Shown here piece after piece: positions 22,612 through 45,530 of a stretch of 62,696 bases of DNA. Under the pieces are notes generated by a model. The model saw nothing but the letters and a program-made list of their open reading frames with translations. It ran no database searches and was not told the DNA's origin. Made by a program: the position numbers and the translations under genes. The DNA is taken from assembly GCA_934153655.1 (NCBI GenBank), contig CAKPFH010000001.1, positions 1 to 62,696 of the forward strand, given 5' to 3'. The stretch's first letter is position 1; each line of letters starts with the position of its first letter. This DNA is from an uncultured Bacilli bacterium. GTDB taxonomy: Bacteria; Bacillota_I; Bacilli_A; RF39; UBA660.

Positions 22612-22642
22612 AAAAAAAATACTAAATTTGAACTTAGTATTT
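22612..22642 (-). terminator. Intrinsic terminator closing the ATPase/giant-protein operon
   Basis: Directly after the TAA at 22643-22645 comes an 8-bp stem AAUACUAA/UUAGUAUU followed by U8. Confidence 0.7.
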
Positions 22643-25600
22643 TTATTCTTTTTCTTTTATAAAATGACCTAATAATAAATTAATTAGAAATAATATAATT
22701 ATAATGATTATTCCATATATAATATTTAAATTAATTTTAGATGGAGTTTCTATTTTTAAAGAATTTTCATATTTTTTATTTAATTGATAATTTTTATAAA
22801 TATTATCATTGATAGATAAATCATTATCGATTATTAAATCATTTTTATTACCTGTTAAATATCCTATATCATATATTTCATATTCTTCTTTTAATGAATC
22901 ATAACTTTCTATACTATCACTAACTTTATCTTGTATTTTTTCTTTAAAAGTTATTATATTCCCGTAAGCATTTGTATATTTTTTAGTAAATGTTTCCTTA
23001 CTTAAAGATTTAAAATTATTTTTTACATAATTTATAACATCAATATATTCTAAGTCATTAACTAATTCAATTCCTATTCGATAGTCAAAACCATATATAC
23101 TTCCATCTAAATATCTTACAAGTATTATTCCACTAGAATTGTTATAATTAGAACTCATTTCTATAATATTATTATTTTTAAATGATGCAGGATACTTAAT
23201 CTCATTTTTTAAATTTAATATTTCATTTTTTTTACTTAAAACTAATAAATAATCTTTATTATTATAACTATCTATTATTAAGCTATCTTTATAGTTATTT
23301 AAAGTACTAGATATCATAGAAAATTTACCATTTTTATAAAATATTTGTTTATTTATTATTTTCTTATCTACTAATGTATAAGTATTAAAAACTTTAATAT
23401 TCATACCATTATAAGTATATTCATCTAAACATACAACTTCTTTTGATTTAGATAAGCTTTCAATATTATTTTCATACTTTTCTAAACTTATTAAATCATA
23501 TATATAGTTATCATTTGTTAAAGCTTTTTTGTTATATAAGTGAATATAATTACCTTTAATTTGTTTTTTATTAACAAATAAATTATTATTTTTTAAATAA
23601 GCATAATTATTATCATATGTTAATAACATTTTTCTTAAATCACTAGATTTATAAGTATATTCTATTTCATTTATTCCATCTTTTATTTTAAAATTAATAT
23701 CACTTTTAAAATCGTAATAGAAAGTCATTGTTTTTTCTGTTAAAGGATATTCTTTATTATTAATTTCTAAGTATAAATAATCATTTATAAGGGAAAAGTC
23801 TATATTAATTTTATTTATATCAACCGGATAAATATTAACATCTGGTAATTTAAAACTTCTAATTCTTGCCATAGTTCTTAAAATAATTTCATTATCTGGT
23901 ATTTTAACAAGTGTTTTGCTTAAATTTTTGAAATAAGGATAATATCCTTCCTTTAAATGGGTTAAATCAAATGAGGATGAACCAAGTCCATGTCTTTTAT
24001 AAAATGCTTCATTCAATAAATCAGTTCTTGTAACAAAATTATTTTCTGCTAAAACAGTATCTTCTGTTACTAATTTGTTATTTAATTTTGATTTATTATA
24101 AATTTTTATATTTTTTAAATTAACTGCATTTAAATCACTATTACCTATAATAATTCCAGAGTTATTAGACTCTTCACTTGTAACATTAGCAATTATTACA
24201 TTATTATTAATATAGTTTGCTTCATTACCAAATTCTTTTTCTATCTTACCAATTAAACCTCCTACATAGTCTTTACCAATTATATTTGCGTTTTGAATTA
24301 TATTACTAAATAATTTAAAAACTCCTGATTCTCCTGAAATCTTGCTATTATCATAATATCCTATTATTCCTCCTACATAAGAGCCGTTTGCAAGTACTGT
24401 TATATTTATTGTATTATAATACATTTCAGCTTTTCCTGAGTTATTAAATTTAGCCCCATAAACACCTCCTACATAATCATGTCCTTTAACAGAGGTATTT
24501 ACAATTTCGCTGGAAATTAAAACTCCATCATATCTTCCAGTAGCACCACCTACATAGTCGTTCCCTTCAACGGTTACATTTACAATACTATTATACGCTT
24601 TTGTTGAAGAATACCCGGATAAACCGCCAATATAATTATGTCCTGTAACTTTTACATCTTTAACAGTACTATGATAAATCCAAGGTGAATTGCCAACCAA
24701 TCCACCAACATAATCACTTCCGCTAATAATAGAGTTATCATATAATTTATTATAATATAAATGATTACTAGCTTGTCCTGAAATACCTCCTACATAACTA
24801 ATACCTGTAATTGTCATCCTACCAGCATTAACATTAGACGCTTCACCATATCCATAAACTCCCCCACAACGAGTTCCATCAATACAATTTACATTTACAT
24901 TATAAGCATCAATTTCAAAATGAAGATTTGTTTCATTATATGTTTTATACCCAATCAAACCACCTGTATAATTTTTCCCTTTAATAGTCATATTTTTAAG
25001 AGTAATATCATTTAAAGCTTCATTAGTTGTTTTTGCTATTAATCCTCCCACATAGTCACCGCCTACAACTTCTATATTATTTAGATTAATATTTTTAGTA
25101 CTTGATGCTGTATTATTTGAAATACTTCCTACATAATTTATATTTTTAGCAATAATTTTATTATTATTAAAATTAATATTTTCAATACTTCCATTGGTTA
25201 TTCCTATTATTCCAAAGCCATTTCCACTACCAGTTGATTCAATATTAAAGTTTTCAAAATTAATATTTTTTAAAGATGTTTTTACTTCTTTTATAAAAAA
25301 TATATTATTTTGATTAGAATTAATATTAACATTTTTTAAAGTATAGCCATCATTGATACCTTCAAGTCTATTTAATATTACATTTGTATTTATATTTACT
25401 TTATCTTTAAAATCAATATCTGCAATTAATCTATAATTTTGAGCAGTTTTTTTATCAATACTTTGCCAATCTTCAAATGACTCTATATCTTTATAAAACT
25501 TTATGTTTAATTTATAATTTATAATATAGGTTTTATTGCTATTTTTTTCTTGATAATTGATTTTACTTAATTTATAACTATCATAGTATTTTTTAGGATT

Positions 25601-28600
25601 TATCAGTATTTCCAAAACCGTTATTCCATTTTCTGTTACATTTTTTCTTATATTAGATATTTCCATATCTTCTATTTCAACACTAGTTATATTTAAATTA
25701 TTTTTATTTTCTATTTTAAACATTACATAAGATTCTTCAAGAGATTGATTAATAACACAATCTATTATTTCAAACTTTGTATCATTAAATTCTATATCTT
25801 TTTGATTAGGTAATAAAGTAGTTGTTTCTTTATAATATAATTTAGGTAGTTTTAAATCAATATTATCATAAGAGAAATCATTACCTAATTTTATTATATT
25901 TTGATAAGTTTCTTTTTCACTTAAATTTTCTTTGGAAAGTAATATTTCACCATTTTTACTATCTGAAATAGTTCCATTTATATGTTGTTTGTTGAAAGCA
26001 TAATTATTAGTATTTAAATATATATTATTACCTATTATTCTTCCTAAATAATTAGTATCAACGCTTGTATACAAGTTACCAATTGATAAAGAATTACTAA
26101 TTGTTTTACTTGAAATATTTCCTGCTATTCCACCGATATAATTAGAAGTTGAATAAATGTCAACTGCACTAATTACTTTATCAATTTTAGTATTTGAATT
26201 TGCTAATCCTACAATTCCACCTACATTAGAGTAATTAGTATTAATTACTCCTAATGCATATGAATTATAAATACCTGTTGAATCTGCAAATCCAACTATT
26301 CCTCCTAAGCCATTTATAGAAGAGACATTATTAACTAAAAAGTCAATATCTGCTACATAGCAATTTGATATAGTTGAAGAACTACTATATCCAATTAAAC
26401 CACCTATATTAGCATTAGTTGAATTTTCATTATTAATAATTTTCATTTTATTAACAGATGAGTTAGTTACAATGGAACTTGGATTTATATATCCTGCTAA
26501 TGCTCCGTTATTATGAGGTCCCAATGTTAAAGTTACATCATTGAAATGAACATTATCAATAACACTTCCTTGATATATACCTGCAATAAAACCATTATTA
26601 TTATTGAATTTTTTATGTGTTATAGTAAAGGAATTAATATTTAGATTTTTAATACTTCCCCTTAATGTACATATAACACCACATGCTGATGATACTGTAA
26701 TGTTTTCTATTTTATGATTATTTCCATCTAATAAACCAGAAAAATTACCTATTACTGCACTATTATCAACATTGTTAAAATCTAAATCTGATTCTAATCG
26801 ATAATTCCAAGTAATATTATTTTTTATATTTTTCCAATCATTTATATTTTCAATTGATTTATACATATTAACATTTAATACTTTTTCATAGTCATCATAT
26901 TTTCTTGTATAACTTATATTAAATACTCCTACTGTTTCTATTTCTTTTATAAAATAAGAAGAAATGTATTTTAAAGGATTAGTTAATTTTAAACTTAAAG
27001 TGGTTAATCCTCTTTCTGTTGTTTGATCAAGTATTTCAACAGTTAAATCTTTAATACCAACTCTCTTAATTGTTTCACTTGAAGGATTATGAACTAATAA
27101 TTTAACAATTGCATAATTTCCATATTCCTTAACTTCTTCTGTTGATAAAATATCCACTAAATCTTCATTTTTAACTTCTGGTAGACTTATATATTCTTGT
27201 TTTGGCATTACATCATTCATTATAACTTGCGGATAATAACCGTATGGAACAAAATCTGAAACATTAAATGCTTTATTTGTATTTAATAACTTATCTTGAA
27301 ATGTTTCGTTTCTAAGTGCTACTTTTGATAATTTTGAAGATTTAGATGTTTGATAAATATTTGGATTAACATAAAATACATTTTTTGTTGAAATATAACT
27401 AATACTACCAAAATTAATATCTCTACTTGTATTTATATTAGTATTTTCAGAATAGGTATATACATTATTAAATATTCCAGAAAAAATTGTTCCCGATATA
27501 TTTCCAGTTGTTCCTGAATCATTTTCTTGTACTACATCTATTAAAGAAAACACATTATCCATATGACTTGAACTACCAGAATAACCAACAATAGCACCTG
27601 TAAAACTTTTAGCATAAAACTTTTTATCACCACTATATAAGTATCCATTTTTAATAAAACCATAATTATATAAACATAATAAACTAGTATAATATTGAGC
27701 ATAAAAATCATCTTTTAAATAAACAACAAAATTTTCAATTGTTCCATAATTTATATTTATCATACTATTATAAGATATATAATCATCTACTTCATCTTCT
27801 ACTGTATAAATAAGATTAGATACAATTCCGTAATTATAATGTACAAGTGGAGTTTTCCATGAAGCAGTTACATTAAAATAGGCATGCAAATCAAGATTTT
27901 TTACAATTGCTGATGAAAGAAGTGTTTGAAACATACGATTATATGTATTACCACTTTGATATACACTATGTCCTTGAAAATCAATTGTTCCTGCATAGGT
28001 ATCAACATATTTATCACTAATTGTTAAATCTAAATCATTAATTACAATATAATTAGCATTTTGATGAATACTAAAAAAATCATCTGGTGTTTTAATCGAT
28101 CTTATCTCATCATCTGTTACTACCTCTATACTATCAAGTTCATAATATCTATCTCTTATTTTTATTAATAATATGAATTTATAAGTTACATTTTTATCAA
28201 GTTCATATTCATTTAAAACTCTATTTATATTAAATTCATTATTTAAACTATAATCATATAATTTTTCTTCTTTATTATTTTTAATTACTTTTATATAATA
28301 TTTATTGTTTTTAATCTCTTTTTTTATATCTTGTAAACTGGTATAAAACTTACCTAAATATTTATCTTTTTCTTTGTAATTTTCATATTTATCTTTATAA
28401 TTATTAATTTCTGCTATATATAAATCTTTTACTTCAATTAAAGTTTTAGTATTATTATTTGCAATTTCATCTATTTGAAATCCAAATAAATAAAAATTAT
28501 TTAAAGTAAATTCATATGTATATTCTTTGTATTCACTTGTTAAATCTAAATTTATTTTTTTATTATTATACCAAAAATAAGATGTTTGATTATTAGAATC

Positions 28601-31099
28601 ACTTGCATATCTTGCTAAAAACCTGACTTTAATTTTTTTATTATTGTATTCTGGTAAATAATATTTATAAAGAGCAGAGCCATTCATAGCAGACATTTTA
28701 ATAGTACTATTATTAATTGTTAAATCATCTAAGGTTGAAGAACCGATTTTAACCCATTTACTTTTATTACTTACATCAAATATATTATTACTTGTTATTT
28801 GACTTAATAAAGATGATAACTCAAGTTTACCTGATATACCTTCATTTGTTATAAATTTGATTTCTTTTATTACTTTACTAGCTTCATATGTTAAATTAGT
28901 ATGACCTATATTATATTCCTCTGCTATAAACATAAAAGTATATTCCATATTTTTATCTAGTTTTTCAATAGTTATTCTTTCATAATCACTATTAATTTTT
29001 ATATCTTTCATCAGTACTAATTTATTAACATTATTTCTAACTTCAAGTATTATCCTATTACTTAAAATAGCATTATCTAAGTCTTTTATATATACATCAA
29101 AGTCTATCATATTACTATTGGTAAATTCATTTATTGTAAATACTTCTGCATCTTTTTTTAAAGTTTTAAATTTTTCTAAATTACTAATAGTATCAATTGT
29201 ATATTCAACATCACCTTGTTTTACAATTGTTTTAATTGAAACATTATATTCTGTATTAGAATCTAAATTATCAAATTCTACTATATTTTCATCTTTAAAA
29301 TTAAGTTTTTTTGTATCATTTAGGTACACTTCAAATTTATCTAAGAGTTCTATTAATCTTGAATCAGTAGCATTTTCATCAATATATACTTCGTATATAG
29401 CTTTATTATTAGTTATCTCTTTTTCTTTAAAATTAAGTCTTATGAAACCCAAAAGTGATATAGACTGGGTACTTATATTTATTTCTTTAAATAAATAATC
29501 TATTCTATTTCCAAATCCATCTAACAAATCGAAATCGCCATATATTTTCACTTTATATATTTCATTTGCTGATAAATTTTTAGATTCTATTGTATTATTA
29601 TTAATTAACCCTTTATCCTTTAAAACACCATTAATATCATATATTTCATATCTAAAATTTTCTATATTAACATCATCTTCATTAATAACTTCTACTCCTA
29701 ATTTAAATCTTGTTATATCAGTATCTATAACATTAATTTTAACCTCAGGTTTTTGTTTTGATGTTTTAATAGTAAATTTATTATTTTTAATTTTTAACTT
29801 ATTTCCTGCCACATCATATATATTAATTTCTCCATTATATTCAGTATTGGATTTTAAATTATTAATAGTTTCATAATTAAATGCTTCTAATTTCTTTAAA
29901 GAAGAAACTAACCTTTGATTTAAATTATATTCGTTTGTTCCTATTTTTATAACTGCTTTTTTAATTCCTTTTAATACTTCATTATTACTATCATTTAACA
30001 ATTTAATATTATTTAAAACAGCTTTATTAGGATAAATATCTGTTATTTTATAAGCAATATCTAATTTATCTAAATTACTCATATCTTTAGTTTTAATTAT
30101 TGTTTCTATAAATGTTTTTTTAATTTGTACACCTTTTTCATTTATATAGGTATAACTACCAATTAATTTAAACTCAGTATCTGGAAGTAATCCAGTTAAT
30201 TCTATTTCATCTGATTGATAAAAAGTTTTTTTTAAATAAATTTCATTTTTATAAATAAGTTCTATTGTTGGATTCTTTTTTATATAAGAATTTTTATCTG
30301 TTATTATTAAATCGCCTTTCATTAAATAAGTATTAGCCTTAATATTTTCAAGTTTAACAATAGGTGTTTCATATTCATTTTTGTTATTATCAGGTATTAT
30401 TATTTCTTCTTCATTTTTGTTATTATCTTCAATTTCCTCTTTTACAAGATTTAATTTTTTAAGTAATTCATAATATTCTATATCATTTTCTATTTTTAAA
30501 ATAGAATTATTACTTATTCCTTCAACAACATCTAATTTTAAAGTATTATTATCTTTATAATAATATTTTATTTTATTTTCAGCAAAGTAAACTATACTAT
30601 ATTTTGGTATTATTTTATTGTTTATAATTTCAATTTCTACATTATTAACATAAACATTATCACTTAATAACAAAAAATAATAATCTTCATTATCAACTTG
30701 TTCATAGTTAACTGTATTATAAATATTTTTGGATGCAACAATCATATTTTTAAAACTATCTTCTAATTTATATTCGCTATTTATTAATTTAACATTATCA
30801 TCTATACTTAATATTTTACTATCGTCAGTAGATATTACTGGATAATTTAATAATATTTCTTTTTTTTCTTTCTCACCAACATAATATTTATCATTTTGTC
30901 TATAAATAAATTCATTTTGTTTAACATTTGTAAGTTCTACTTGCTTTTTAGAATCATCATTTTTTATATTTCTTATTATATTTTCATTTGTTACTATATA
31001 ACCAGTTAATTCTATTTTACCAACATTTCTATATTGTAAAAAACATATATAAAAAATAACTAATAATAATACTACAAAAACACCCATTACTTTTTTCAT
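22643..31099 (-). CDS. Giant (2818 aa) surface protein anchored at both termini, with FN3-like repeats and three GLUG-type beta-helix modules
   Basis: It has an N-terminal TM (VFVVLLLVIFYICFL) and a C-terminal TM (IIYGIIIIIILFLINLLLG). L..NTEY-type FN3 signatures are present. Three modules open with W..I......NYRL..D(L/I)DF...G...G (or IKTPDDFFSI...YIVINDLDL), followed by many (D/N)YVGG(L/I)(I/V)G repeats. Confidence 0.85.
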   Translation of the reverse strand: MKKVMGVFVVLLLVIFYICFLQYRNVGKIELTGYIVTNENIIRNIKNDDSKKQVELTNVKQNEFIYRQNDKYYVGEKEKKEILLNYPVISTDDSKILSIDDNVKLINSEYKLEDSFKNMIVASKNIYNTVNYEQVDNEDYYFLLLSDNVYVNNVEIEIINNKIIPKYSIVYFAENKIKYYYKDNNTLKLDVVEGISNNSILKIENDIEYYELLKKLNLVKEEIEDNNKNEEEIIIPDNNKNEYETPIVKLENIKANTYLMKGDLIITDKNSYIKKNPTIELIYKNEIYLKKTFYQSDEIELTGLLPDTEFKLIGSYTYINEKGVQIKKTFIETIIKTKDMSNLDKLDIAYKITDIYPNKAVLNNIKLLNDSNNEVLKGIKKAVIKIGTNEYNLNQRLVSSLKKLEAFNYETINNLKSNTEYNGEINIYDVAGNKLKIKNNKFTIKTSKQKPEVKINVIDTDITRFKLGVEVINEDDVNIENFRYEIYDINGVLKDKGLINNNTIESKNLSANEIYKVKIYGDFDLLDGFGNRIDYLFKEINISTQSISLLGFIRLNFKEKEITNNKAIYEVYIDENATDSRLIELLDKFEVYLNDTKKLNFKDENIVEFDNLDSNTEYNVSIKTIVKQGDVEYTIDTISNLEKFKTLKKDAEVFTINEFTNSNMIDFDVYIKDLDNAILSNRIILEVRNNVNKLVLMKDIKINSDYERITIEKLDKNMEYTFMFIAEEYNIGHTNLTYEASKVIKEIKFITNEGISGKLELSSLLSQITSNNIFDVSNKSKWVKIGSSTLDDLTINNSTIKMSAMNGSALYKYYLPEYNNKKIKVRFLARYASDSNNQTSYFWYNNKKINLDLTSEYKEYTYEFTLNNFYLFGFQIDEIANNNTKTLIEVKDLYIAEINNYKDKYENYKEKDKYLGKFYTSLQDIKKEIKNNKYYIKVIKNNKEEKLYDYSLNNEFNINRVLNEYELDKNVTYKFILLIKIRDRYYELDSIEVVTDDEIRSIKTPDDFFSIHQNANYIVINDLDLTISDKYVDTYAGTIDFQGHSVYQSGNTYNRMFQTLLSSAIVKNLDLHAYFNVTASWKTPLVHYNYGIVSNLIYTVEDEVDDYISYNSMININYGTIENFVVYLKDDFYAQYYTSLLCLYNYGFIKNGYLYSGDKKFYAKSFTGAIVGYSGSSSHMDNVFSLIDVVQENDSGTTGNISGTIFSGIFNNVYTYSENTNINTSRDINFGSISYISTKNVFYVNPNIYQTSKSSKLSKVALRNETFQDKLLNTNKAFNVSDFVPYGYYPQVIMNDVMPKQEYISLPEVKNEDLVDILSTEEVKEYGNYAIVKLLVHNPSSETIKRVGIKDLTVEILDQTTERGLTTLSLKLTNPLKYISSYFIKEIETVGVFNISYTRKYDDYEKVLNVNMYKSIENINDWKNIKNNITWNYRLESDLDFNNVDNSAVIGNFSGLLDGNNHKIENITVSSACGVICTLRGSIKNLNINSFTITHKKFNNNNGFIAGIYQGSVIDNVHFNDVTLTLGPHNNGALAGYINPSSIVTNSSVNKMKIINNENSTNANIGGLIGYSSSSTISNCYVADIDFLVNNVSSINGLGGIVGFADSTGIYNSYALGVINTNYSNVGGIVGLANSNTKIDKVISAVDIYSTSNYIGGIAGNISSKTISNSLSIGNLYTSVDTNYLGRIIGNNIYLNTNNYAFNKQHINGTISDSKNGEILLSKENLSEKETYQNIIKLGNDFSYDNIDLKLPKLYYKETTTLLPNQKDIEFNDTKFEIIDCVINQSLEESYVMFKIENKNNLNITSVEIEDMEISNIRKNVTENGITVLEILINPKKYYDSYKLSKINYQEKNSNKTYIINYKLNIKFYKDIESFEDWQSIDKKTAQNYRLIADIDFKDKVNINTNVILNRLEGINDGYTLKNVNINSNQNNIFFIKEVKTSLKNINFENFNIESTGSGNGFGIIGITNGSIENINFNNNKIIAKNINYVGSISNNTASSTKNINLNNIEVVGGDYVGGLIAKTTNEALNDITLKNMTIKGKNYTGGLIGYKTYNETNLHFEIDAYNVNVNCIDGTRCGGVYGYGEASNVNAGRMTITGISYVGGISGQASNHLYYNKLYDNSIISGSDYVGGLVGNSPWIYHSTVKDVKVTGHNYIGGLSGYSSTKAYNSIVNVTVEGNDYVGGATGRYDGVLISSEIVNTSVKGHDYVGGVYGAKFNNSGKAEMYYNTINITVLANGSYVGGIIGYYDNSKISGESGVFKLFSNIIQNANIIGKDYVGGLIGKIEKEFGNEANYINNNVIIANVTSEESNNSGIIIGNSDLNAVNLKNIKIYNKSKLNNKLVTEDTVLAENNFVTRTDLLNEAFYKRHGLGSSSFDLTHLKEGYYPYFKNLSKTLVKIPDNEIILRTMARIRSFKLPDVNIYPVDINKINIDFSLINDYLYLEINNKEYPLTEKTMTFYYDFKSDINFKIKDGINEIEYTYKSSDLRKMLLTYDNNYAYLKNNNLFVNKKQIKGNYIHLYNKKALTNDNYIYDLISLEKYENNIESLSKSKEVVCLDEYTYNGMNIKVFNTYTLVDKKIINKQIFYKNGKFSMISSTLNNYKDSLIIDSYNNKDYLLVLSKKNEILNLKNEIKYPASFKNNNIIEMSSNYNNSSGIILVRYLDGSIYGFDYRIGIELVNDLEYIDVINYVKNNFKSLSKETFTKKYTNAYGNIITFKEKIQDKVSDSIESYDSLKEEYEIYDIGYLTGNKNDLIIDNDLSINDNIYKNYQLNKKYENSLKIETPSKINLNIIYGIIIIIILFLINLLLGHFIKEKE

Positions 31100-31180
31100 A
31101 TAACACCTACTTATTATAAAGTAATTGTATCAAATTTTTTATAAAAAGTCTATTCTTTAAAAGAAAAAAATAGGCATAAC

Positions 31181-31903
31181 CTATTTAAAAAATGAATCTA
31201 GATACTTTATTTCTTTCATAAGTAATCTTTGTTTACCATTATTATCAATTGAATCTATACTTAAATTAAGTTTATAACTATTATTAGTTGCTATAACGTC
31301 TTCTTTTACATTTTCAAAAGTTTTAGCATATTCTTTTTCATAATCATAGTAAAAACAAGTTTTATTAGTATAATTAACTATTACATAAGAAAATGGAGAT
31401 AATTCGATGTTCTCATTATCTATTTTTAAAGTTGTTGTAAATGGAAATATATATAAATCATTCCCATCATATATAATAGCATCATCTATAAATATTTTAT
31501 TATTATTCTTTACTACATAGGTATCGATTTTTTCTCCATCTAAAATACTAAAAAAAGGTAATTGTTTTTGAAGTAAATTAGATGATGGAATAATAATTGA
31601 CATATCAGTTGGTAATAATATTTTTCTTGAATCTTTATAATAAAATGGATCTGATGATAATATTACTTCTTTGTTATCTACTAATAATTTAGTGATAGAA
31701 TTATCTTTGTTTAAAGTTAATTTAGTTGTATAATCAAATCTTTGTTCTCCAAAATATTGATACATTTTTGTATTTGTTGTATAAGTAGTTATTTTATTAT
31801 TCAATTTTTTAATTATTAAAATAACACTTAGTAATAAAATTATAATAATTAAAGGTATTAGTATTTTTAAAATTATTTTTTTAGGATTTTTTTTCTTAAT
31901 CAT
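31181..31903 (-). CDS. N-terminally membrane-anchored protein (operon member)
   Basis: 240 aa with a single TM (ILKILIPLIIIILLLSVILII). It has an 8-nt overlap with the upstream gene. Confidence 0.7.
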   Translation of the reverse strand: MIKKKNPKKIILKILIPLIIIILLLSVILIIKKLNNKITTYTTNTKMYQYFGEQRFDYTTKLTLNKDNSITKLLVDNKEVILSSDPFYYKDSRKILLPTDMSIIIPSSNLLQKQLPFFSILDGEKIDTYVVKNNNKIFIDDAIIYDGNDLYIFPFTTTLKIDNENIELSPFSYVIVNYTNKTCFYYDYEKEYAKTFENVKEDVIATNNSYKLNLSIDSIDNNGKQRLLMKEIKYLDSFFK

Positions 31904-32447
31904 ATTTCATCTTCTCTTTCTTTTTTATATATTTATTTCTTTTTAATATTATTAATATATCTTTTATATAAAAATATGATACATAGGAAAATATAAATAA
32001 TAATACAAGAGCCATAATTAAAATTATATATGGTTTTAAACTAATAGTATTTATATAGTTAAATAAAGTTGCATTCATCATAAGTGCAAAGTATATAATA
32101 ACATTATTAAATACTGAAAAAGGAATACTTATAATCTTGTTATTAATAATATCAAATAAAATATCTGCTATTAACAAAAAATAAAAATGGTAATCTTCTA
32201 AAATAAATGTATAATCTGTTTTAAATAAACACCAAATAAAAAATATATATCTCAGTGTTATAACTGAAAACATTAAAATATCTTTATTTGATAAACCACT
32301 AAATAAACCAAAAATTTTTATATTAATATTTCCTTTTTTTATTTTAAATAAGATGTATTTAATAAAAATATATATTGTAACTAATAATAGAAATAAAGAT
32401 AAAATGAAAGGAAATAGTTTATCTAAATAATATATTATATATTCCAT
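31896..32447 (-). CDS. Multipass membrane protein (operon member, about 5 TM)
   Basis: 183 aa and very hydrophobic. Charged residues sit inside predicted helices (VITLRYIFFIW, LLIADILFDII). The start is 2 nt after the epsilon-like stop. Confidence 0.7.
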   Translation of the reverse strand: MEYIIYYLDKLFPFILSLFLLLVTIYIFIKYILFKIKKGNINIKIFGLFSGLSNKDILMFSVITLRYIFFIWCLFKTDYTFILEDYHFYFLLIADILFDIINNKIISIPFSVFNNVIIYFALMMNATLFNYINTISLKPYIILIMALVLLFIFSYVSYFYIKDILIILKRNKYIKKKEKMKYD

Positions 32448-32449
32448 TA

Positions 32450-32692
32450 TTAAATAGACTCCTTTACTATTAATTTAAAAACATTATTTCTATTTACATA
32501 ATATGCAAATAAATTATCTATTTTTTTAGTTTCTGTTGATGTTTCTATTTCGATTGTTCCGTTTATATTGCCAATAATTGGCATATAGTCTTTCATGATT
32601 AATAAATTATATTCTTTACTTAAAATACGAATTACTCTAACATCTTGTATTTCTTCTAAGCCATTTTTTAAAGTAAATATTTTAACAGTCAT
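32450..32692 (-). CDS. atpC: F1 epsilon-subunit-like protein (beta-sandwich domain only)
   Basis: MTVKIFTLKNG...LLIMKDYMPIIGNINGTIEI... matches the epsilon N-domain pattern (GILPGHAPL..L..G). The ATG at 32692 lies 1 nt after the beta stop (TAAtATG). About 80 aa, with no C-terminal helical hairpin. Confidence 0.6.
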   Translation of the reverse strand: MTVKIFTLKNGLEEIQDVRVIRILSKEYNLLIMKDYMPIIGNINGTIEIETSTETKKIDNLFAYYVNRNNVFKLIVKESI

Positions 32693-32693
32693 A

Positions 32694-34814
<2,121 letters not shown>

Positions 34815-34822
<8 letters not shown>

Positions 34823-36110
34823 CTTTATTATCCTTTAAAAAATCAAATTTGATAATTATTTCTTCTTCACTAATAGGCGAATACTTTTTTTGAATTAATT
34901 GCTCTAATATCTTTTTTCCTCTAAATAATTTTAATTTAAGTTCATCACTCATTTCATCTGTATTAGCAAGTTCATAAACATCTCTTGTTTCAAGATAATT
35001 TAATAATAACCTTCTAACATTTGCTCCTAATTCTTTCATTGGTTTTGTTTGAACTGCTCCACCAAGTCTTGATACGGATAATCCATAGTTAATAGCAGGT
35101 TTCTCACCTTTTTGAAAATTTTTAGTTGATAAAACAATTTGTCCGTCTGTTATAGAAATAATATTTGTAGATATATAATCTGTTATATCACCACCTCTTG
35201 TTTCAACTATTGGAATTATTGAGATACTACCTCCATTTTTATGTTGACATCCTTTCTCTAAAAGTCTTGAATGTAAATAAAATATATCAGATGGATAAGC
35301 ATCTCTTCCTGGACTTTTTCCAGATATTAAACTGATTTCTCTGTATGCGTCTGCATGTCTTTTTAAGTCATCTATTACAACTAACACATCATTTCCACTT
35401 TCCATTAATTTCTTAGCAATTGATAGAGCATAATAAGGCGTAAGTACTAAAACAGGGGCTAAATCATCATTAAAAGCTGAAACTATAATTGTATATTCAA
35501 GAGCATTTCTTTTCATTAATTCATAATATATTTCTTTAACTTCTTTTTTAGTTTTACCTATTGCAACATAAATACAGAAAACACCTTTATCCTTTTGATT
35601 AACAATTGTATCCAAACAAATTTGAGTTTTTCCCGTTTTTTTATCGCCTATTACAAGTTGTCTTTGTCCCTTTCCTATTGGATATATTAAATCAATTCCA
35701 ACAATTCCTGTCAAAAGAGGTCTATTAACATTTGTTCTATCCATAATTGGAATATTATCTTCTTCAAAATGAAGTTGCATAATATTTTTATATCTCATAC
35801 CAGTTAATAAATCTGTTCCAAATATATTAGTAATTCTTCCTACACTATCTAAGGAAAATTCTCCCATAAATTCTTCATTTGTTTGATAAGCTATATCTCC
35901 TATTACAATTTCTTCTTTTTTTAATAAAATAGCAACTATAACACTATTTGCATTAATTTTTGTTACATATCCAAGTGCTTTATTAGAAATATTAATTTTT
36001 TCATAAAAAGAAACACTTTCTAATCCAACAATTTCAACAATAAATTCTTTAATATTTATTATTTTACCAACATCTATTATTTTACCAACATCTAATGCTT
36101 TTTCTTGCAT
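34815..36110 (-). CDS. atpA: F1-ATPase alpha-subunit homologue
   Basis: Contains GKGQRQLVIGDKKTGKTQICLDTIVNQ, YREISLISGKSPGRDAYPSDIFYLHSRLLE, GGSISIIPIVETRGGDITDYISTNIISITDGQI and GLSVSRLGG. The ATG at 36110 is preceded by AGGAGG. About 431 aa, C-terminally shorter than canonical alpha. Confidence 0.9.
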
Positions 36111-36118
36111 AAAACCTC

Positions 36119-36843
36119 CTACTCTAAACAATAATTATACAATTTACTATGATAATATATTTTAATTCCCTTATATATTTTTTTATTATAAATAGTTTTT
36201 ATACGAGGTGATAAATTATCATAATTCTCATGATTATTACCTACTTCTATATAAATATTAGGATCAAACCTAGCAATTTCTCTATTTAGAAATATCATAA
36301 ATTGATTAACATCATTAGTAATGTCAAAATACTTTTTCATTAATCCTTGGCACTCTAAACTACTATTTTTAATTAATTTAGATAACTCATTATTATTATC
36401 AGTTATTAATTTATAAATACCATATTTTTCTATACTTTTTTTTAGATTTATAAGTTCATTATATAAATTAATATTTTCTTTATCTACTTTATATTTTAAA
36501 AATTCTAAAACTACACTTTTTGTGTCAATTTTAAAACTTTCATCTATTTTTTTTAATTTACCAATTAAATCATCTATTTCAAACTCTATTTCTTTTGGAG
36601 TAACACATATTACTTTTTCCTTAGTGTTAAAAGAATTATTTACTTTTTCCTTATTTACATTTTTTTCAATTACTTGTATCTTCTTTTCTCTTTCTTCTAT
36701 TAAATCATCATAATCTTGTAATTTTAAAACAAAATATTTTTTTAGCTGAGCATTTATTTCTTTAACTACTTTTTTTAAAAACAAAAACATTAAAATAGTT
36801 AAAACTAATAATGCAGCAACAATTATTAAAATTGTTTTTTCCA

Positions 36844-36844
<1 letters not shown>
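36119..36844 (-). CDS. b/delta-like peripheral-stalk candidate (N-terminal TM plus a long charged helix)
   Basis: 241 aa with a TM (ILIIVAALLVLTILMFLFL) followed by a coiled-coil-like K/E-rich helix. It sits between the c-like and alpha genes, as atpF/atpH do, and its start overlaps the c-like stop (TAATG). Confidence 0.5.
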
Positions 36845-38459
<1,615 letters not shown>

Positions 38460-38468
38460 ATATTTCTC

Positions 38469-41400
38469 CTAACCAACATAATTATATTGAAGTGCTTCTT
38501 CTGCTACAACTTTGTTATTTGTTAAAAATTGTAATTGAATATAATAAACACCTTTTGTTTGAAAATCATCAGGTAACTCAAATGTATAATAAGAATTACC
38601 ATCATTTGTTTGAAGTTTTGGAATAAATTCAACACTATTATCTATTGTTGAATCTCCTCCATATATTGAATATCTTATATCAGTTATATTACTCAACTTA
38701 TAACTATCATAAAAAACAAGAGTTGCCTTAGTATTATCCTCTAGGTTTGTTGTAACATAAACTTTTCCAATATCAATTCCATCTTCATTCATAGCAATTG
38801 TTGAGTATCTTTTTGATTGTTCTTTTAAAGATGTTGTATCATTTTTTAAATTAACTAAATATTTAATTTCAATATAATATTCCTCATTAATTACTAAATT
38901 ATCTAGTTCAAACTTTTTATTATATTCTTTTGTACTATAATATTGATTTTTATATCTATCCGGAGTTATATCATTTAAATCTTTATCATACATGAAAACT
39001 TGATAAGTATCTAAATATATAACTCTATGATAATCAAATACATTAACCTTAAAATCAATTTTAGTACCATTTTCATATCTATTGGAACTAATTCCTATAT
39101 AAGGTTGCCTTAAATCAGAAAAAATATACTCTGCACTTTCAAAAGGTTCTAATTCTATTTCTTTTATAGTACCATTATCATTAATTTTAGTAAAAGCTCT
39201 AATTATTATTTTATACTTTTGATCAGTTGTAATACCAGATTCTGGTGGAATTGAAATATACTTAGTCATCTCAGTATTAAATACATAATTTGGTTCAATA
39301 TTCAAATTAATTAACTCCATATTATCATTATTAACTCTATATAACTCATATTCTATTCTATCATATCCTACTATTTCTTTTAAAGAATAATCGATTTTTA
39401 AGGATTTTTCTGAGTAACTTTTAGCAGTATATGAAATATTAATATTTTCAATACCAACACTTCCTAATGTTTTAAAATAATAGTTTTTGGTATTATTTTG
39501 AAAATTCACATCATATAATTGAATTCTTTTATAATCATTTCCACTTTTAACATCAGCCATAACCTTAATATAATAATTTTTTTTAGGTTGCAAATTAGTA
39601 ATTTTAACTGCATTTGTTAATTCACTTGCAAGTATGCTTTTACATGCGTTATCTATTTTAGTACTAATTGTACCATTTTCATTTGTTTCATAGACATCAA
39701 TATATATTTTATTATCTTTTATCCTATCATTACTATTTCCAAATAAATCAATATATACAAGAGCATATGTCAAAGCAGGTGTAATATTTTGCTTACCATC
39801 ATCACTCATAATACTAATTCCAGGAATAATCGTGTCAAATCTAAATTCATTGGTACTACTTGTTAATTTTGCAGTTGATAATTGCTTAGGATATAAATAT
39901 TCATAATTATAACTATAACCCTGCTCATCAATACTTAAATCATAATTTATACTTTTAGAATCAATTAAACTAGTTAATGATAATTTATTACTATTAAGTT
40001 TAAATTTAAATATAGAATTCTTAGCTGTTTCACTTGATACTAAATAATTATTATCAAGTGCATAGTAATATCCACTATATAAATTATTTTTAATAGTTTG
40101 AAAAGCGTATTTATTATTATTATTATTAAATCCTATTATTCCATTATCATAGTATAAATACATTTCTACGCTTATATCTTCGCCTATAAAATCTTCTAGT
40201 TCTATAATATCAATTACAATTGTTCCATTATTGTTTATTGACAAATTATCTAATATTTTACTTGCACTATTAGTTTTGAACACTAATTTAGCAGCAGATA
40301 CACGATTATAAAAACTATAATCTTCTAAATAATCTAAAATAGTAATAATAATTCTATTAGTTTCTAAATTAATATTGAATTTTTTAACTGAATACATAGG
40401 ATCACTAAGAGGTCTATCTCCTGAATATATATATGGCGTTTCATAATATTGATAAACTAATTTTTTATATGAAGGAATTTCATCTTTAATTAAATTTTCA
40501 TATACATATAAATTTAAATATCCACTTGAATTAACTGAAAATAATACATCTTGATAGTTATTTGAACTATTAATCTTTACTGTTTTTGGTTCATTATTAT
40601 CAATTTTATAATAAATATCATTTGAAAATAAACTATTATCAACATCACTATATTTATATTTAAAAACTACCTTTTCTTTATCTGATATGTATGGATACAT
40701 TTTAAAAATTGGACTTTGTTTTTCAGGTGTAATTTTTTTAGATTTTAATGTAATTCCCAATTCTTCTAATGGATAAATTGTTTCAGCCTCTCCATCAAAG
40801 TTTAAGTCGAGATCAACTGTATAAGTAATATAATAACTATTACCTCTCCTAAAATCATTATCAATAATATCTTTACTTGTCCCATCCTTTAAATAAAAAT
40901 ATACATAATCAATTTCTCCATTTGCTGGAACATTATACATTTTTGTATCAATTAATTTATTAGTATTTGCATCATATAAATAATAATTAATTTTTTTAGC
41001 ATATCGTTTAGAATTATCATATCTCGCTTTTACTTTGTATCCAATAATTGTATCAGAATTTAAATCTGTTCTATAATTTTCAAAATTTGCATTATTTCTA
41101 ATTAAATTAATTTCCATAGCATCATTTATATCTGTTGGTAAATCTGGAATATATCCATTTGCCTTAATTGTAACAACATTTGATATTATGTCTATATTAT
41201 TTTTATATGTTGTATAATCATAGGCATTTGTAACTTCAACAGTATAATAATCATTTTGTAAATCTTGATTTCTAAGTTCAAAAAAACTTGGATCAAGTAT
41301 AAAAGAATTATCATAATAAGTATCTTTCAATTCACTATAATATTCTCTTGTATCTCTATCTACCTTAGAAATTGTTCTAATTAAATTACCTTTTGTTGAT

Positions 41401-43637
41401 TTACCAGAATATAAATTAAAAGTTAAATTAGTTAAAGTACTAGCTTCAAGCGTATTATCAACATCATTTTCTGCTCTTAACCTAGAAACTACTTTAAATG
41501 CTCTTGTTGTATCATCCTCATCTATTATATAATCTAGTAAAAATGGTTTTGTAGGTTTAGTTTGAATAACAACACTACCAATATAGCAATTATCAATTGT
41601 AGCATTACCATCTTGTAAATTAACAGCTGCAAAAACCGATATAGTATAACTTTCATTTGCCCTTAAATTATTTACATTAAAAGGTATAATTGAATTACCA
41701 CTTGATGTAAAACTTTTAGAATTACCAGATGAATCAGTATATGTAACTGTTATAATATTAGATTCATCAAATGTAATAGTATTTCCCTCATCACTAATAA
41801 TTATGTTACCAGAAATTTTTTCAAAAGTTACTTCATCGCTTTCAAATCTAACAGATGGAAATTCAACTCCATCCAATTGCATAACTGAACTATATTCCGT
41901 TTCATATTCAAACTCTTTCTCATTATCATTGAAGATAGCAATCATTTTATAAACATATGGTACACCACGAAATATAATTTTATTATCAACATATAAATCT
42001 ACTCCACCTTGATTGCTTTTATCAATTTCTTTTAATTTAACTGGATTATTAAGAAGAGTTCTAGCATCATATATTTCATATTTATATGTAACTACACCAC
42101 TATCAACATCACTTATATTGTTAACTTTCAAATTAAACTGAGAATTTTTTTTATCAAGCGAATAAGTAAGATTACCAAAAGATGGTTTCCTCTTTAAAGT
42201 TTTATATTTTTTATATATATTAAATTGATCACTTATGATTGAATTTTTATATAAAAAATTATGCAAAATTACTTTATACTCTGTATTAGGACTTAAATTT
42301 TTAAAGTCTACTATATTATTATTAATTAAATCATGTGTATTTTTAGTATAAGTTTTTATAATTTCGTTATTAGAATCAATTAAAGATATATCTAATCCTT
42401 CAACCTTGGTATTAGAATCAACTTCAATTTTATAAGACATTTCATCTGTTGTAAAATAATTTTTAATAATACTAACACCAATTGGTTCAGTTATAAACGA
42501 CTTTTGGATAAAATCTCTATTATAAGTCTGTGTATTTTTAATATAATTAGAATTAACAAGAAAAACATAATTTGTATTTTCTTTTAAATTTTCAACTTCA
42601 ATTTGAAAAAACCTTAATCCACTATTTTCTGTGTTTTCATAAACTAATTTATTAGTTGCAGATTCTATTATCTTTAAAGTAATATCACCTGTTAATAAAT
42701 TACTTGTATCTTCATATTTTATAGATGCTCGAAATTTATTAGAAGTTACTTCCATATCACTAATTAAAAATACTGGCTCACTTACCTTTTCTTTATCATC
42801 TATTATTTCTTCATCATCAGATACATCAATATTTCCATTAGTTAATCCATCTAATGGATTGGATTTATCTTTTTCATCTTTATTTGTATTTGTTTCTTCT
42901 TTTTTAATATCTATATTATCATTTTTATCAATAGTTATTTGAGATAAATTTAATTTTTTGTCATTATTTAAGAAAATATTTTTTGTTGACAAATCTATTT
43001 TAACATTATTTGATAATTCAATATAAAAATTAGAAGACACATTTTGTATTTGCATTTCTTGATTTTCCATTCTTACAATATTTCCATCAAAAAACTCAAA
43101 TTCTAAATAACTATTTAAAATTTCTTTATTAGAACCCATCAAATTAAGATTAATTTTGGGTGAAACAATCATATATTTATTTTCATCTATTTTCATTAAA
43201 AAGTTTGTAAAAGAAATTTTATTATTTAAAGTTTCAGTATAATATATATTGTCTTTGTTTACTAATCTAGTTCCTACATATAAATTATAATATTTAATTA
43301 ATGAATCATTTAAATTATCTAAATTTAAAATAGCTGTTTTATTCAATACAGAAATTGATTTATCAGAAAAATGAATAAAAGAATTTTCACTAACCTTTAC
43401 ATTTTCATTATCAGTATTTGCAAAAATATAATTTTTTTCATAATCTTTTTTATATTTTGTTCCACCATTAAAATAATACTTAGTTGTTGAAAGAACTGCA
43501 CTTTCATAACTTCTTCCTATAATATAACCACTATCATTAAACTCGCCTAATCTGTTTTCTTTTGTTTTTATTCCATAAAGAAAAATCACTGTTATCATTA
43601 AAGAAACTGTAATTATAACAAATAATATTTTTTTCAT
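38469..43637 (-). CDS. Giant (1722 aa) N-terminally anchored surface protein with many FN3-like repeats (first gene of the operon)
   Basis: N-terminal TM (ILFVIITVSLMITVIFLYG). It has repeated signatures NLKENTNYVFLV, NLSPNTEYKVIL, NLRANESYTISV, NLQPKKNYYIKV and LVINEEYYIEI. Confidence 0.85.
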   Translation of the reverse strand: MKKILFVIITVSLMITVIFLYGIKTKENRLGEFNDSGYIIGRSYESAVLSTTKYYFNGGTKYKKDYEKNYIFANTDNENVKVSENSFIHFSDKSISVLNKTAILNLDNLNDSLIKYYNLYVGTRLVNKDNIYYTETLNNKISFTNFLMKIDENKYMIVSPKINLNLMGSNKEILNSYLEFEFFDGNIVRMENQEMQIQNVSSNFYIELSNNVKIDLSTKNIFLNNDKKLNLSQITIDKNDNIDIKKEETNTNKDEKDKSNPLDGLTNGNIDVSDDEEIIDDKEKVSEPVFLISDMEVTSNKFRASIKYEDTSNLLTGDITLKIIESATNKLVYENTENSGLRFFQIEVENLKENTNYVFLVNSNYIKNTQTYNRDFIQKSFITEPIGVSIIKNYFTTDEMSYKIEVDSNTKVEGLDISLIDSNNEIIKTYTKNTHDLINNNIVDFKNLSPNTEYKVILHNFLYKNSIISDQFNIYKKYKTLKRKPSFGNLTYSLDKKNSQFNLKVNNISDVDSGVVTYKYEIYDARTLLNNPVKLKEIDKSNQGGVDLYVDNKIIFRGVPYVYKMIAIFNDNEKEFEYETEYSSVMQLDGVEFPSVRFESDEVTFEKISGNIIISDEGNTITFDESNIITVTYTDSSGNSKSFTSSGNSIIPFNVNNLRANESYTISVFAAVNLQDGNATIDNCYIGSVVIQTKPTKPFLLDYIIDEDDTTRAFKVVSRLRAENDVDNTLEASTLTNLTFNLYSGKSTKGNLIRTISKVDRDTREYYSELKDTYYDNSFILDPSFFELRNQDLQNDYYTVEVTNAYDYTTYKNNIDIISNVVTIKANGYIPDLPTDINDAMEINLIRNNANFENYRTDLNSDTIIGYKVKARYDNSKRYAKKINYYLYDANTNKLIDTKMYNVPANGEIDYVYFYLKDGTSKDIIDNDFRRGNSYYITYTVDLDLNFDGEAETIYPLEELGITLKSKKITPEKQSPIFKMYPYISDKEKVVFKYKYSDVDNSLFSNDIYYKIDNNEPKTVKINSSNNYQDVLFSVNSSGYLNLYVYENLIKDEIPSYKKLVYQYYETPYIYSGDRPLSDPMYSVKKFNINLETNRIIITILDYLEDYSFYNRVSAAKLVFKTNSASKILDNLSINNNGTIVIDIIELEDFIGEDISVEMYLYYDNGIIGFNNNNNKYAFQTIKNNLYSGYYYALDNNYLVSSETAKNSIFKFKLNSNKLSLTSLIDSKSINYDLSIDEQGYSYNYEYLYPKQLSTAKLTSSTNEFRFDTIIPGISIMSDDGKQNITPALTYALVYIDLFGNSNDRIKDNKIYIDVYETNENGTISTKIDNACKSILASELTNAVKITNLQPKKNYYIKVMADVKSGNDYKRIQLYDVNFQNNTKNYYFKTLGSVGIENINISYTAKSYSEKSLKIDYSLKEIVGYDRIEYELYRVNNDNMELINLNIEPNYVFNTEMTKYISIPPESGITTDQKYKIIIRAFTKINDNGTIKEIELEPFESAEYIFSDLRQPYIGISSNRYENGTKIDFKVNVFDYHRVIYLDTYQVFMYDKDLNDITPDRYKNQYYSTKEYNKKFELDNLVINEEYYIEIKYLVNLKNDTTSLKEQSKRYSTIAMNEDGIDIGKVYVTTNLEDNTKATLVFYDSYKLSNITDIRYSIYGGDSTIDNSVEFIPKLQTNDGNSYYTFELPDDFQTKGVYYIQLQFLTNNKVVAEEALQYNYVG

Positions 43638-43672
43638 TTTATCACATATCCTTACCTATATTTTCTATAAAT

Positions 43673-43701
43673 AGTATATTATAAATTCAATTATAAATCA
43701 A
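43673..43701 (-). promoter_or_regulatory. Putative sigma-A promoter of the ATPase/giant-protein operon
   Basis: Minus strand reads TTGATT (43696-43701), a 17-nt spacer, then TATACT (43673-43678), about 35 nt upstream of the ATG at 43637. Confidence 0.4.
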
Positions 43702-45283: not shown

Positions 45284-45364
45284 TTTATCACCAAGAGAAC
45301 TATATAACATGTATAAACAAAAAGAAATAGCTTCGACAATAACTGCCAAATTACTATTTCTTAT

Positions 45365-45530
45365 TTACACATATTTACATCCAGAAAACCGACCATTGGG
45401 AAATTAAACCCGATTTTTAATCAGGTGGGCATCCATACTAGTTTTTAGGATTCTCGAGAACTCACACCCAAGCATTCAACACCAACTATTGATCAGGACT
45501 CCCGTATAATGTTTTTTGTAGGATTTATAC
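45365..45530 (-). ncRNA. Structured small RNA candidate, 6S RNA-like
   Basis: The only noncoding island that is clearly G+C-richer than its AT-rich surroundings. The minus-strand 5' ...GGGAGUCCUGAUCAAUAGUUGG can pair with 3' CCAAUGGUCGG...CUGG. Internal pairings include UGGGU/GCCCA and a GUUC-UCGA-GAAU hairpin. A TTGGTA-17-TGcTATAAT promoter lies at 45562-45590. The ends are approximate. Confidence 0.4.

Follow-up and report, generated by a model that had tools for sequence, protein, structure and literature searches.

We analyzed a 62,696-nt stretch of DNA (the window; contig CAKPFH010000001.1 of assembly GCA_934153655.1) from an uncultured Bacilli bacterium of UBA660, a family within RF39. 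Eleven co-directional genes, g01 to g11, lie on its minus strand at 22643-43637. All of their open reading frames (ORFs) are intact, and each was present at the coordinates given in an earlier note on this DNA (Table 1). Within this operon the ATPase subunit genes follow each other in the order c, b-delta-like, alpha, gamma, beta and epsilon, and a near-complete F1Fo architecture is kept: alpha3beta3, gamma, the epsilon N-terminal domain, c and a b-delta-like stalk. The cluster is conserved as a unit across many genomes. Judging from sequence, it is most likely an F-type-derived ATPase that has been diverted to a surface function, a kind already known from mycoplasmas. It is apparently undescribed, and no description of it was found in the literature on RF39, Tenericutes or uncultured Bacilli. 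Its anatomy and conservation are well supported; its function is speculative.

The DNA has 23% G+C. The operon genes are joined by overlaps or gaps of a few bases, and the sole long gap, of 81 nt, lies before the last gene, g11. The earlier note had proposed a promoter, TTGATT-17-TATACT, and a hairpin with T-run as the two ends of the transcript. Both elements exist. On the 5' side of the promoter-like site are a hairpin and a T-run that end the upstream gene. However, 212 promoter-like sites were found in this DNA and 204 were expected, so the proposed promoter is indistinguishable from chance; because such sites occur at chance frequency in A+T-rich DNA, it is not confirmable from sequence. 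The hairpin directly after g11 was not called by a G+C-based terminator scan, which missed it because it is too A+T-rich. The smaller hairpin in the 81-nt gap may attenuate transcription ahead of the 8.5-kb last gene.

Table 1. Features of the operon and of the region upstream of it. Positions are those of the window; aa, amino acids.
Feature	Position	Strand	Description
g01, 1722 aa	38469-43637	-	N-terminal membrane anchor and fn3-like array
g02, 451 aa	37104-38459	-	N-anchored, fn3-like motifs; sits in the canonical atpB (subunit a) slot
g03, 81 aa	36844-37089	-	c-like subunit, helical hairpin, PF00137
g04, 241 aa	36119-36844	-	b-delta-fusion-like stator protein, from structure model
g05, 438 aa	34815-36131	-	alpha, PF00006; TTG start, ATG 7 codons in
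g06, 254 aa	34058-34822	-	gamma, PF00231
g07, 451 aa	32694-34049	-	beta, PF00006
g08, 94 aa as longest ORF	32450-32734	-	epsilon N-terminal domain, from structure model
g09, 183 aa	31896-32447	-	polytopic membrane protein, 4-5 transmembrane segments
g10, 240 aa	31181-31903	-	N-anchored, presumably extracellular
g11, 2818 aa	22643-31099	-	anchored at both ends; fn3-like and GLUG-like repeats
Promoter-like site, TTGATT-17 nt-TATACT	43673-43701	-	in the 88-nt gap upstream of g01
A+T-rich hairpin AAATACTAA/TTAGTATTT, then 8-T run	22612-22642	-	directly after the g11 stop codon
5-bp hairpin ATAGG/CCTAT, then T-run	31164-31184	-	in the 81-nt gap; includes the g10 stop codon
6S RNA	45374-45559	-	upstream of operon
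ISL3-family transposase	46756-47778	-	upstream of operon
tmRNA, tag GNNNQLAFA	48732-49076	+	upstream of operon
SocA/Panacea antitoxin-like gene	49667-50212	-	upstream of operon

Related loci were taken as the best 80 of 312 genomic matches from 185,579 species genomes searched with beta. Each locus consisted of beta with 10 kb on each side, and the eleven operon proteins were searched in it by tblastn. All eleven proteins were recovered in the 80 loci, sharing one strand and mostly keeping their order. The genes that flank the operon in the window (ZIP, recA, DUF2752 and DUF4234) were found by tblastn in none of the 80. Because order and strand recur in dozens of genomes while the flanks differ, the cluster is more than a chance neighborhood. 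The closest relatives of beta (79-80% identity) come from gut metagenome-assembled genomes (MAGs) labelled Tenericutes, Bacilli, Candidatus Scybalousia, Candidatus Coprovivens and Mycoplasma sp. CAG:956; NCBI classifies Candidatus Coprovivens under Bacilli incertae sedis. Relatives at 65-68% identity come from records labelled Clostridia.

Alpha (g05) and beta (g07) matched PF00006 in Pfam with E values of 5e-71 and 4e-67, respectively, and gamma (g06), which was found in 79 of the 80 loci, matched PF00231 (E 1e-24). In beta, GGAGVGKT and GERSREG are invariant in 78 of 78 homologues. In alpha, the Arg-finger motif SVSRLG is invariant in 66 of 66, and the Walker A motif is conserved too. Walker A, the catalytic Glu and the Arg finger of a catalytic alpha3beta3 were all found. 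The earlier note had held that alpha and beta keep their catalytic signatures, and the motifs it quoted, including DELSNDD, are indeed in the translations. Beta is 447-484 aa long in all loci and 63-80% identical across them. Alpha is shortened at both ends relative to canonical alpha (about 500 aa), with a median of ~445 aa across homologues. Judged by this invariance, catalysis of the alpha/beta head is under purifying selection, and the ATPase module, which is F1Fo-derived, looks catalytically competent.

The same data bear on whether the operon is only a functionless, decaying atp remnant that came to lie beside unrelated surface genes by chance. Subunit a, the ion-binding carboxylate of c and the C-terminal domain of epsilon are lost, and the hosts have reduced genomes. 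Yet all ORFs are intact, the catalytic motifs are invariant in 66-78 homologues, beta is well conserved over the loci as given above and so is the gene order. We consider decay scarcely conceivable, because the conservation data contradict it.

Some homologues of alpha are much longer. Proteins of 560-890 aa were seen at L024:6532-9204 and L023:6684-9221, and also in the related loci L013, L015, L019, L022, L026 and L047. The extra part in L024 is a C-terminal tail, acidic and of low complexity; in the others, tails reach up to ~450 aa or the N-terminus is extended. These long variants recall the extended alpha/beta proteins of mycoplasma F1-like ATPases. In the window, a perfect 18-nt tandem duplication (2.1 copies, 100% match) at 36057-36094 encodes "DVGKII" twice at the alpha N-terminus. 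Recent slippage or an assembly artefact could explain it.

The earlier note had assigned six ORFs to ATPase subunits. Profile hidden Markov models (HMMs) matched c, alpha, gamma and beta, but the epsilon-like and b/delta-like proteins had no sequence match. For g08, no sequence-level match was obtained in Pfam, NCBIfam or a PDB profile search. When the epsilon-like profile was compared by hhalign with the epsilon sequences of E. coli and PS3, the alignment was in register and not significant. The AlphaFold2 (AF2) model of g08, built on an alignment of 24 homologues, is all-beta with a predicted local distance difference test (pLDDT) score of 93.3. Its 50 best Foldseek matches were all chains of F-type ATPase/synthase entries (template-modelling scores 0.64-0.80, probability 1.0), which we take to be epsilon (mitochondrial delta) chains. 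The modelled structure thus confirms g08 as epsilon, in agreement with the earlier label. Only the N-terminal beta-sandwich is present in g08; the C-terminal helical hairpin is missing. In bacterial F1Fo, the epsilon C-terminal domain inhibits hydrolysis. In homologues of g08, gene callers start at an internal Met and give 78-85 aa, and the real start of g08 is probably the Met at 32704 or 32692.

The protein encoded by g04, present in 64 loci, had no sequence-level match in Pfam, NCBIfam or the PDB profile search either. Its AF2 model (pLDDT 74.6) consists of a helix at 2-63, which makes up the transmembrane and stalk helix, disorder at 65-90, a helical bundle at 93-192 and beta strands at 197-237. 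All of the 31 best Foldseek matches to this model were F-type ATP synthase chains, either delta/OSCP-sized or the mycobacterial b-delta fusion. The fold and these individually weak matches are in line with the earlier label "b/delta-like". They support, but do not prove, that g04 is a b-delta fusion-like stator with a delta/OSCP-like domain.

The c-like protein g03 matched PF00137 (E 5e-8 in Pfam) and is about 75% identical across loci. Its best relatives in the PDB are the Na+-type c subunits of A. woodii and I. tartaricus. In the HMMER alignment, a Thr in g03 faces the essential Glu of A. woodii c, and the other Na+-ligand positions hold Ile, Met, Phe and Phe. Glu or Asp occurs in the ion-binding column of 0 of 57 distinct c-like sequences; one has an Asp one residue earlier. 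The family keeps the cytoplasmic GRNPETK loop and the C-terminal LLFFNPL tail over these 57 sequences.

Subunit a was noted earlier as absent, and this holds: ATP-synt_A (PF00119) had no match among the ORFs of the 62.7-kb window, and the slot is occupied by the N-anchored, fn3-like g02. A tblastn search with subunit a of the two nearest canonical operons found nothing in the 1.49 Mb of window and related loci. In the operons that hold the nearest canonical alphas, atpI, a, c, b and delta are present, c has its Glu, and ATP-synt_A lies beside c. The polytopic protein g09 had no PDB (profile search), Pfam or NCBIfam match. It is poorly conserved among homologues; tblastn located it after epsilon in 31 loci, and weak BLAST matches add further ones. 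We considered g09 as a degenerate subunit a and rejected this, since a conserved Arg is lacking and no similarity to subunit a was seen. It is a cluster-specific candidate for the membrane partner of the c-ring. By these alignments and searches, the parts that couple rotation to ions have been lost: subunit a is missing, and the c carboxylate and Na+ ligands are replaced.

This loss speaks to the alternative that the complex is still a housekeeping ion pump, with g09 as a highly diverged subunit a and an unconventional ion path. In its favor, the cluster conserves the 5-transmembrane g09, ProAD suggests the lack of any other complete rotary ATPase in RF39/UBA660 genomes, and beta passes the atpD cut-off by 0.4 bit. 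On the other hand, hydrophobic residues stand in place of the c carboxylate and Na+ ligands in every homologue, g09 has neither the Arg nor the similarity expected of subunit a, alpha and gamma score far under their equivalog cut-offs, and the regulatory domain of epsilon is gone. We regard an ion pump as very improbable.

The remaining proteins of the operon are anchored at the membrane. Hydropathy analysis gave one N-terminal hydrophobic segment each in the 1722-, 451-, 241- and 240-aa proteins and at least four segments in the 183-aa protein. In g11, hydrophobic segments were found at 1-27 and 2786-2816. These results agree with the topology proposed earlier. The first giant, g01, is presumably extracellular, with weak fn3 and Pur_ac_phosph_N matches and recurring L.P.T.Y motifs. 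Its orthologues, which occupy the same position in 47 loci, resemble it along their whole length. For g02, which has orthologues in 53 loci, Pfam and NCBIfam gave no family. Orthologues of g10 occur in 63 loci, and one variant order places g10 between g02 and c. A fragment of g11 scored 28.4 bits with fn3 in Pfam, the sole match above cut-off among fragments of the giants, and 18.5 bits with Glug, below its cut-off. The protein carries eleven YVGG-type repeats and GLUG-like (G.DYVGGL.G) beta-helix repeats, and has orthologues in 46 loci. Both giants, g01 and g11, align with their locus orthologues over the whole available length. An NCBIfam scan of the two found no family.

Giant genes were counted in the 46 loci whose core is flanked by at least 4 kb on either side, a giant being a same-strand ORF of at least 800 aa. 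Giants lie beside the core in 40 of these 46 loci: on both sides in 30, upstream only in 9 and downstream only in 1. The other six (L061, L064, L070, L074, L078 and L080) are without adjacent giants, and so are L081 and L082. The proposal that the giants are co-conserved with the ATPase genes therefore stands for most loci and fails for these. Since minimal clusters exist, giants are not obligatory, or else are encoded elsewhere in those genomes. They are frequent, non-obligatory neighbors of the core.

Three arrangements were observed. The first is the order in the window. The second is g01-g02-g10-c-b-alpha-beta-epsilon-TM-gamma, where TM is the transmembrane protein, followed by a cytoplasmic protein of 615-735 aa. 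The third, minimal arrangement has a ~250-aa N-anchored protein, then c-b-alpha-beta-epsilon-TM-gamma and a ~285-aa cytoplasmic protein, with no giants. From these three, the core consists of c, b-delta, alpha, gamma, beta, epsilon and the transmembrane protein, usually with a small N-anchored protein.

The cytoplasmic protein after gamma is 283-288 aa long in L064, L070, L078, L081 and L082, and its 615-735-aa relatives are found in L034, L053 and L061. It has no transmembrane segment and no Pfam family, and may be an extra intracellular component of the motor. At L081:2818-6208, the stretch directly upstream of the minimal cluster holds a sigma factor, spoVAC/spoVAD/spoVAEb and a VanY peptidase.

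The variants leave room for a different explanation, in which the ATPase core acts alone in another membrane process, such as work on a lipid-linked or protein substrate or a spore or envelope task, and the giants are neighbors or co-regulated cargo. It accounts for the eight loci without giants named above, for the 283-288-aa cytoplasmic protein after gamma in minimal variants with its larger relatives in L034, L053 and L061, and for the position of the L081 cluster after the sigma factor-spoVA-VanY block. Against it, same-strand ORFs of at least 800 aa abut the core with tiny gaps in 40 of 46 loci, g10 and g02 accompany the core in 63 and 53 loci, and the flanks of the whole 11-gene block vary between genomes. 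An independent core seems unlikely to us.

Another use of the hexamer would be to energize export, insertion or assembly of the giants instead of their later movement, in the manner of the F1-related FliI-FliJ ATPase of type III export. With 1722 aa and, for the doubly anchored g11, 2818 aa, the giants would be difficult export substrates, and their genes are tightly linked to those of the ATPase. Alpha and beta also score on FliI/YscN/SctN models, with 160-223 bits against cut-offs of 380-720. However, F-type models give 386-463 bits, two to three times as much. The kept c, epsilon and delta-like stator are parts of a rotary membrane motor rather than of an export gate, no export-gate homologue was found in the cluster with Pfam or NCBIfam, and minimal clusters exist without giants. 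We hold an export role to be distinctly improbable.

We favor a surface motor, and think it moderately probable that the operon encodes a fourth kind of F-type-derived ATPase: an ion-independent, hydrolysis-only rotary enzyme coupled to surface proteins. Such an enzyme would be able only to burn ATP, not to make it. Hydrolysis would turn gamma-epsilon and the c-ring, in a rotary or at least torque-generating manner, against a stator of alpha3beta3, the b-delta protein and probably the 5-transmembrane g09. The motion would be passed to the single-pass-anchored extracellular g10 and g02 and, in most genomes, to the giant fn3/beta-helix proteins. The output would be surface force or conformational cycling, for example in movement or gliding, adhesion or release, remodelling of the surface layer, or contact with partner cells. 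The analogy is with the mycoplasma F1-like ATPases of Type 2 (gliding) and Type 3 (MIB-MIP), for which a surface role has been proposed, and mycoplasma F1-like motors offer the mechanistic precedent (PMC12994834, PMC11864180).

Several points weigh against the surface motor. The delta-like call for g04 rests on a medium-confidence model and on Foldseek matches that are individually weak (E 0.05-3). The stalk helix of g04 is short, with ~38 residues beyond the membrane, so that g04 would need its disordered linker to extend to the top of F1. We know of no demonstrated way in which a c-ring spinning in lipid could move a single-pass protein. Finally, the clusters without adjacent giants count here too. 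The ATP-powered surface apparatus suggested in the earlier note is partly upheld, in that the module is F1Fo-derived, competent-looking and linked to giants, but the giants are not its universal partners.

A broader reading goes further, and we consider it possible but on the unlikely side. Among the RF39-type Bacilli and those Clostridia-labelled gut lineages in which the cluster also occurs, the housekeeping F1Fo of the ancestor would not have been duplicated but would itself have been converted to an ion-independent rotary motor, with c-ring and b-delta driving giant fn3/beta-helix proteins through peptidoglycan. If true, Gram-positive gut bacteria would possess a new ATP-powered machine for surface motility or adhesion. 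Because c and b-delta are kept, the machine would also represent a living intermediate that links F1Fo to the F1-like motors of mycoplasmas, and "extra paralogue" would be replaced by "converted housekeeping enzyme".

The operon suggests that ATP is spent on mechanical work at the cell surface and not on energy conversion. To our knowledge, rotary ATPases in non-bioenergetic work have so far been known only from mycoplasmas. Non-bioenergetic F1-like ATPases have been called mycoplasma-specific (PMC12994834, PMC11864180). The cluster described here would widen the phenomenon to hundreds of species of abundant, uncultured human and livestock gut bacteria that are walled and spore-forming. Because c-ring and b-delta-like stalk are retained, it can show how an ATP synthase becomes a motor. 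A c-ring without the carboxylate, the lack of subunit a and a truncated epsilon give direct biochemical and cryo-EM predictions. Attachment to host mucus or partner cells is a candidate role for the giant surface proteins.

The hosts are genome-reduced relatives of mycoplasmas and are suspected of a dependent lifestyle. ProAD lists f__UBA660, o__TANB77 and f__CAG-508 among gut lineages without a complete rotary ATPase, defined there as an alpha-beta-gamma-a-c or an A-type set. The a-less cluster fits as what those genomes have, perhaps as their only rotary-type ATPase, and this a-less version may explain the gap reported for UBA660 and other gut lineages. An a-less ATPase sharpens the question of how these bacteria maintain their membrane potential.

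Besides the operon, the window encodes a MurD-like ligase, CotE, a LysM/SpoVID-N-like protein, a sigma factor, pilin-like genes, recA, tmRNA and 6S RNA. RF39 has been predicted to be mostly walled and spore-forming (PMC10868615). Given this prediction and the MurD-like, CotE and SpoVID-N/LysM genes, the host is a walled spore-former, as the earlier note had it. The sigma-70-family gene (44651-45349) lies upstream of the cluster and is separated from it by the DUF4234 and DUF2752 genes. A 1678-aa protein (7478-12514, minus strand) has an N-terminal pilin methylation motif, four MBG domains and an SH3_3 domain, and two small pilin-like ORFs lie at 12523-12891 and 48146-48646, also on the minus strand. 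The giant pilin-like protein is a second unusual surface feature of this genome.

To place the cluster among known ATPases, we compared its subunits with NCBIfam models. With the canonical models, alpha scored 386-403 bits against cut-offs of 484-554, gamma 62.7 against 194 (TIGR01146), and beta 463.3 against 462.85 (TIGR01039), so that the atpD threshold passed by beta is borderline. With the Type 3 models, alpha gave 301 bits (MSC_0619, cut-off 520) and beta 408 (MSC_0618, cut-off 570). With the Type 2 models, alpha gave 398 (glide_MMOB1660, cut-off 600) and beta 400 (glide_MMOB1670, cut-off 850); beta aligns solely to positions 229-682 of the 705-position glide_MMOB1670 model. The N-ATPase alt_F1F0 models gave 343 for alpha, 413 for beta and 23 for gamma, with cut-offs of 750, 752 and 282, respectively. 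Alpha and gamma thus stayed under every NCBIfam cut-off, and the Type 2 and Type 3 models scored about as high as the canonical ones or lower. In an exhaustive phmmer search of 1.84 billion representatives with alpha, seven members of the new clade scored 502-604 bits, one divergent member 391, and the rest at most 327; this gap in scores speaks for a separate lineage.

A neighbor-joining tree of 116 alpha sequences was built with 100 bootstraps. The new alphas form a monophyletic clade in 100 of 100 bootstraps, which lies outside the canonical operons and the Type 2/3 families and is not nested among canonical representatives; a phylogeny of this kind had been proposed as a check in the earlier note. 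Five mycoplasma-type alphas, two of them named MSC_0619 (P0269 and P0276), are monophyletic in 88 of 100 and fall outside the new clade. The new clade joins this group in only 38-50 of 100 bootstraps, and long-branch attraction is possible. HMMs of c, epsilon, b-delta and the transmembrane protein found nothing in two Type 2-like loci of Mycoplasmataceae MAGs. The suggested kinship with the mycoplasma systems thus gained no firm support from the tree or from accessory subunits. An origin of the mycoplasma 12-transmembrane X0 protein from fused c hairpins was also considered and is unsupported, the c HMM having no match in the two Type 2-like loci. From the sub-cut-off scores, the separate alpha clade and the accessory HMMs without a match, the cluster is neither Type 2 nor Type 3.

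In the same tree, the Clostridia-labelled L032, L036, L037, L044 and L056 make up a subclade that nests among the Bacilli- or Tenericutes-labelled L001, L019 and L031. Either these MAGs are mislabelled or the cluster was transferred between genome-reduced gut lineages. The nearest canonical alpha, P0162 (676 aa; L086:8001-10031), is an OSCP(delta)-alpha fusion in an otherwise normal operon of a gut MAG, atpI-a-c-b-alpha-gamma-beta-epsilon. Many other top alpha representatives carry N-terminal extensions of 100-270 aa.

Type 2 and Type 3 clusters are described as sets of seven genes, none of them c or b, and as mycoplasma-specific (PMC3369863, PMC12994834, PMC11864180); the absence of c and b agrees with the earlier note. 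The Type 3 F1-like X0 ATPase (MSC_0618/MSC_0619) is required for the MIB-MIP antibody-cleavage system (PMC3369863, PMC12994834). Its genes encode, in order, a 12-transmembrane protein, a small cytoplasmic one, gamma, epsilon, a large protein with a signal peptide and two transmembrane helices at its C-terminus, alpha and beta (PMC12994834). The present cluster shares with Type 3 the F1-derived alpha, beta, gamma and epsilon, whose catalytic motifs are intact, the absence of subunit a, and linkage to genes of surface proteins that ATP hydrolysis is proposed to drive. In both, alpha is without the full N-terminal delta-binding helix and the host belongs to the Bacilli/Mollicutes radiation. Unlike in Type 3, c and a b-delta-like protein are kept and the 12-transmembrane protein is absent. 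Type 3 exists as an additional paralogue next to a genuine F1Fo operon, whereas here this is possibly not so. General Pfam/NCBIfam scans of the window ORFs annotated no MIB or MIP, the presence of MIB/MIP models in these libraries not having been verified.

Type 2, the G1-ATPase gliding motor of M. mobile (PMC11864180, PMC8406192), is likewise a mechanical F1-like ATPase with giant surface proteins that are held in the membrane by terminal transmembrane helices, and alpha here scores nearly equally against Type 2 and canonical models (398 and 403 bits). However, the beta subunit of G1 is lengthened at its N-terminus by a long extension through which dimers and chains are built, whereas beta here has 451 aa. 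In Type 2 the genes of the Gli leg, crank and mount proteins are in a separate operon, c and b-delta genes are absent, and the host is wall-less, not a walled spore-former. The giants here resemble the Gli proteins in size and anchoring only, with no family match in Pfam or NCBIfam.

N-ATPases (TIGR03305/TIGR03324) are a second divergent F-type lineage with rearranged gene order, and the variant order c-b-alpha-beta-epsilon-TM-gamma also parts gamma from alpha. They differ in keeping subunit a, an ion-binding c and AtpQ/AtpR; subunit a was not found here. The mycobacterial b-delta fusion (PDB 7nkd), which is among the Foldseek matches of g04, has an N-terminal transmembrane segment, stalk helix and delta domain in one polypeptide, as g04 would. 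It has 330-445 aa and a long stalk and pairs with b', whereas g04 has 241 aa, a short helix and a disordered linker, and no b' gene accompanies it. FliI/YscN forms a homohexamer from one gene, in contrast to the two paralogous subunits alpha and beta here.

The Na+-type F1Fo of Clostridia and Fusobacteria shares the order c-b(delta)-alpha-gamma-beta-epsilon with the window, and the F1 subunits and c are recognizable. The c protein most resembles those of A. woodii and I. tartaricus, down to the C-terminal NPF/NPL tail, and beta is closest to the F1 beta of Fusobacterium nucleatum. In contrast to canonical F1Fo, there is no subunit a or AtpI, c is without its carboxylate and Na+ ligands, the putative b-delta fusion is short, alpha is truncated and epsilon has lost its C-terminal domain. 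The present operon instead carries extra membrane and surface proteins among its ATPase genes, and its alphas form a clade of their own.

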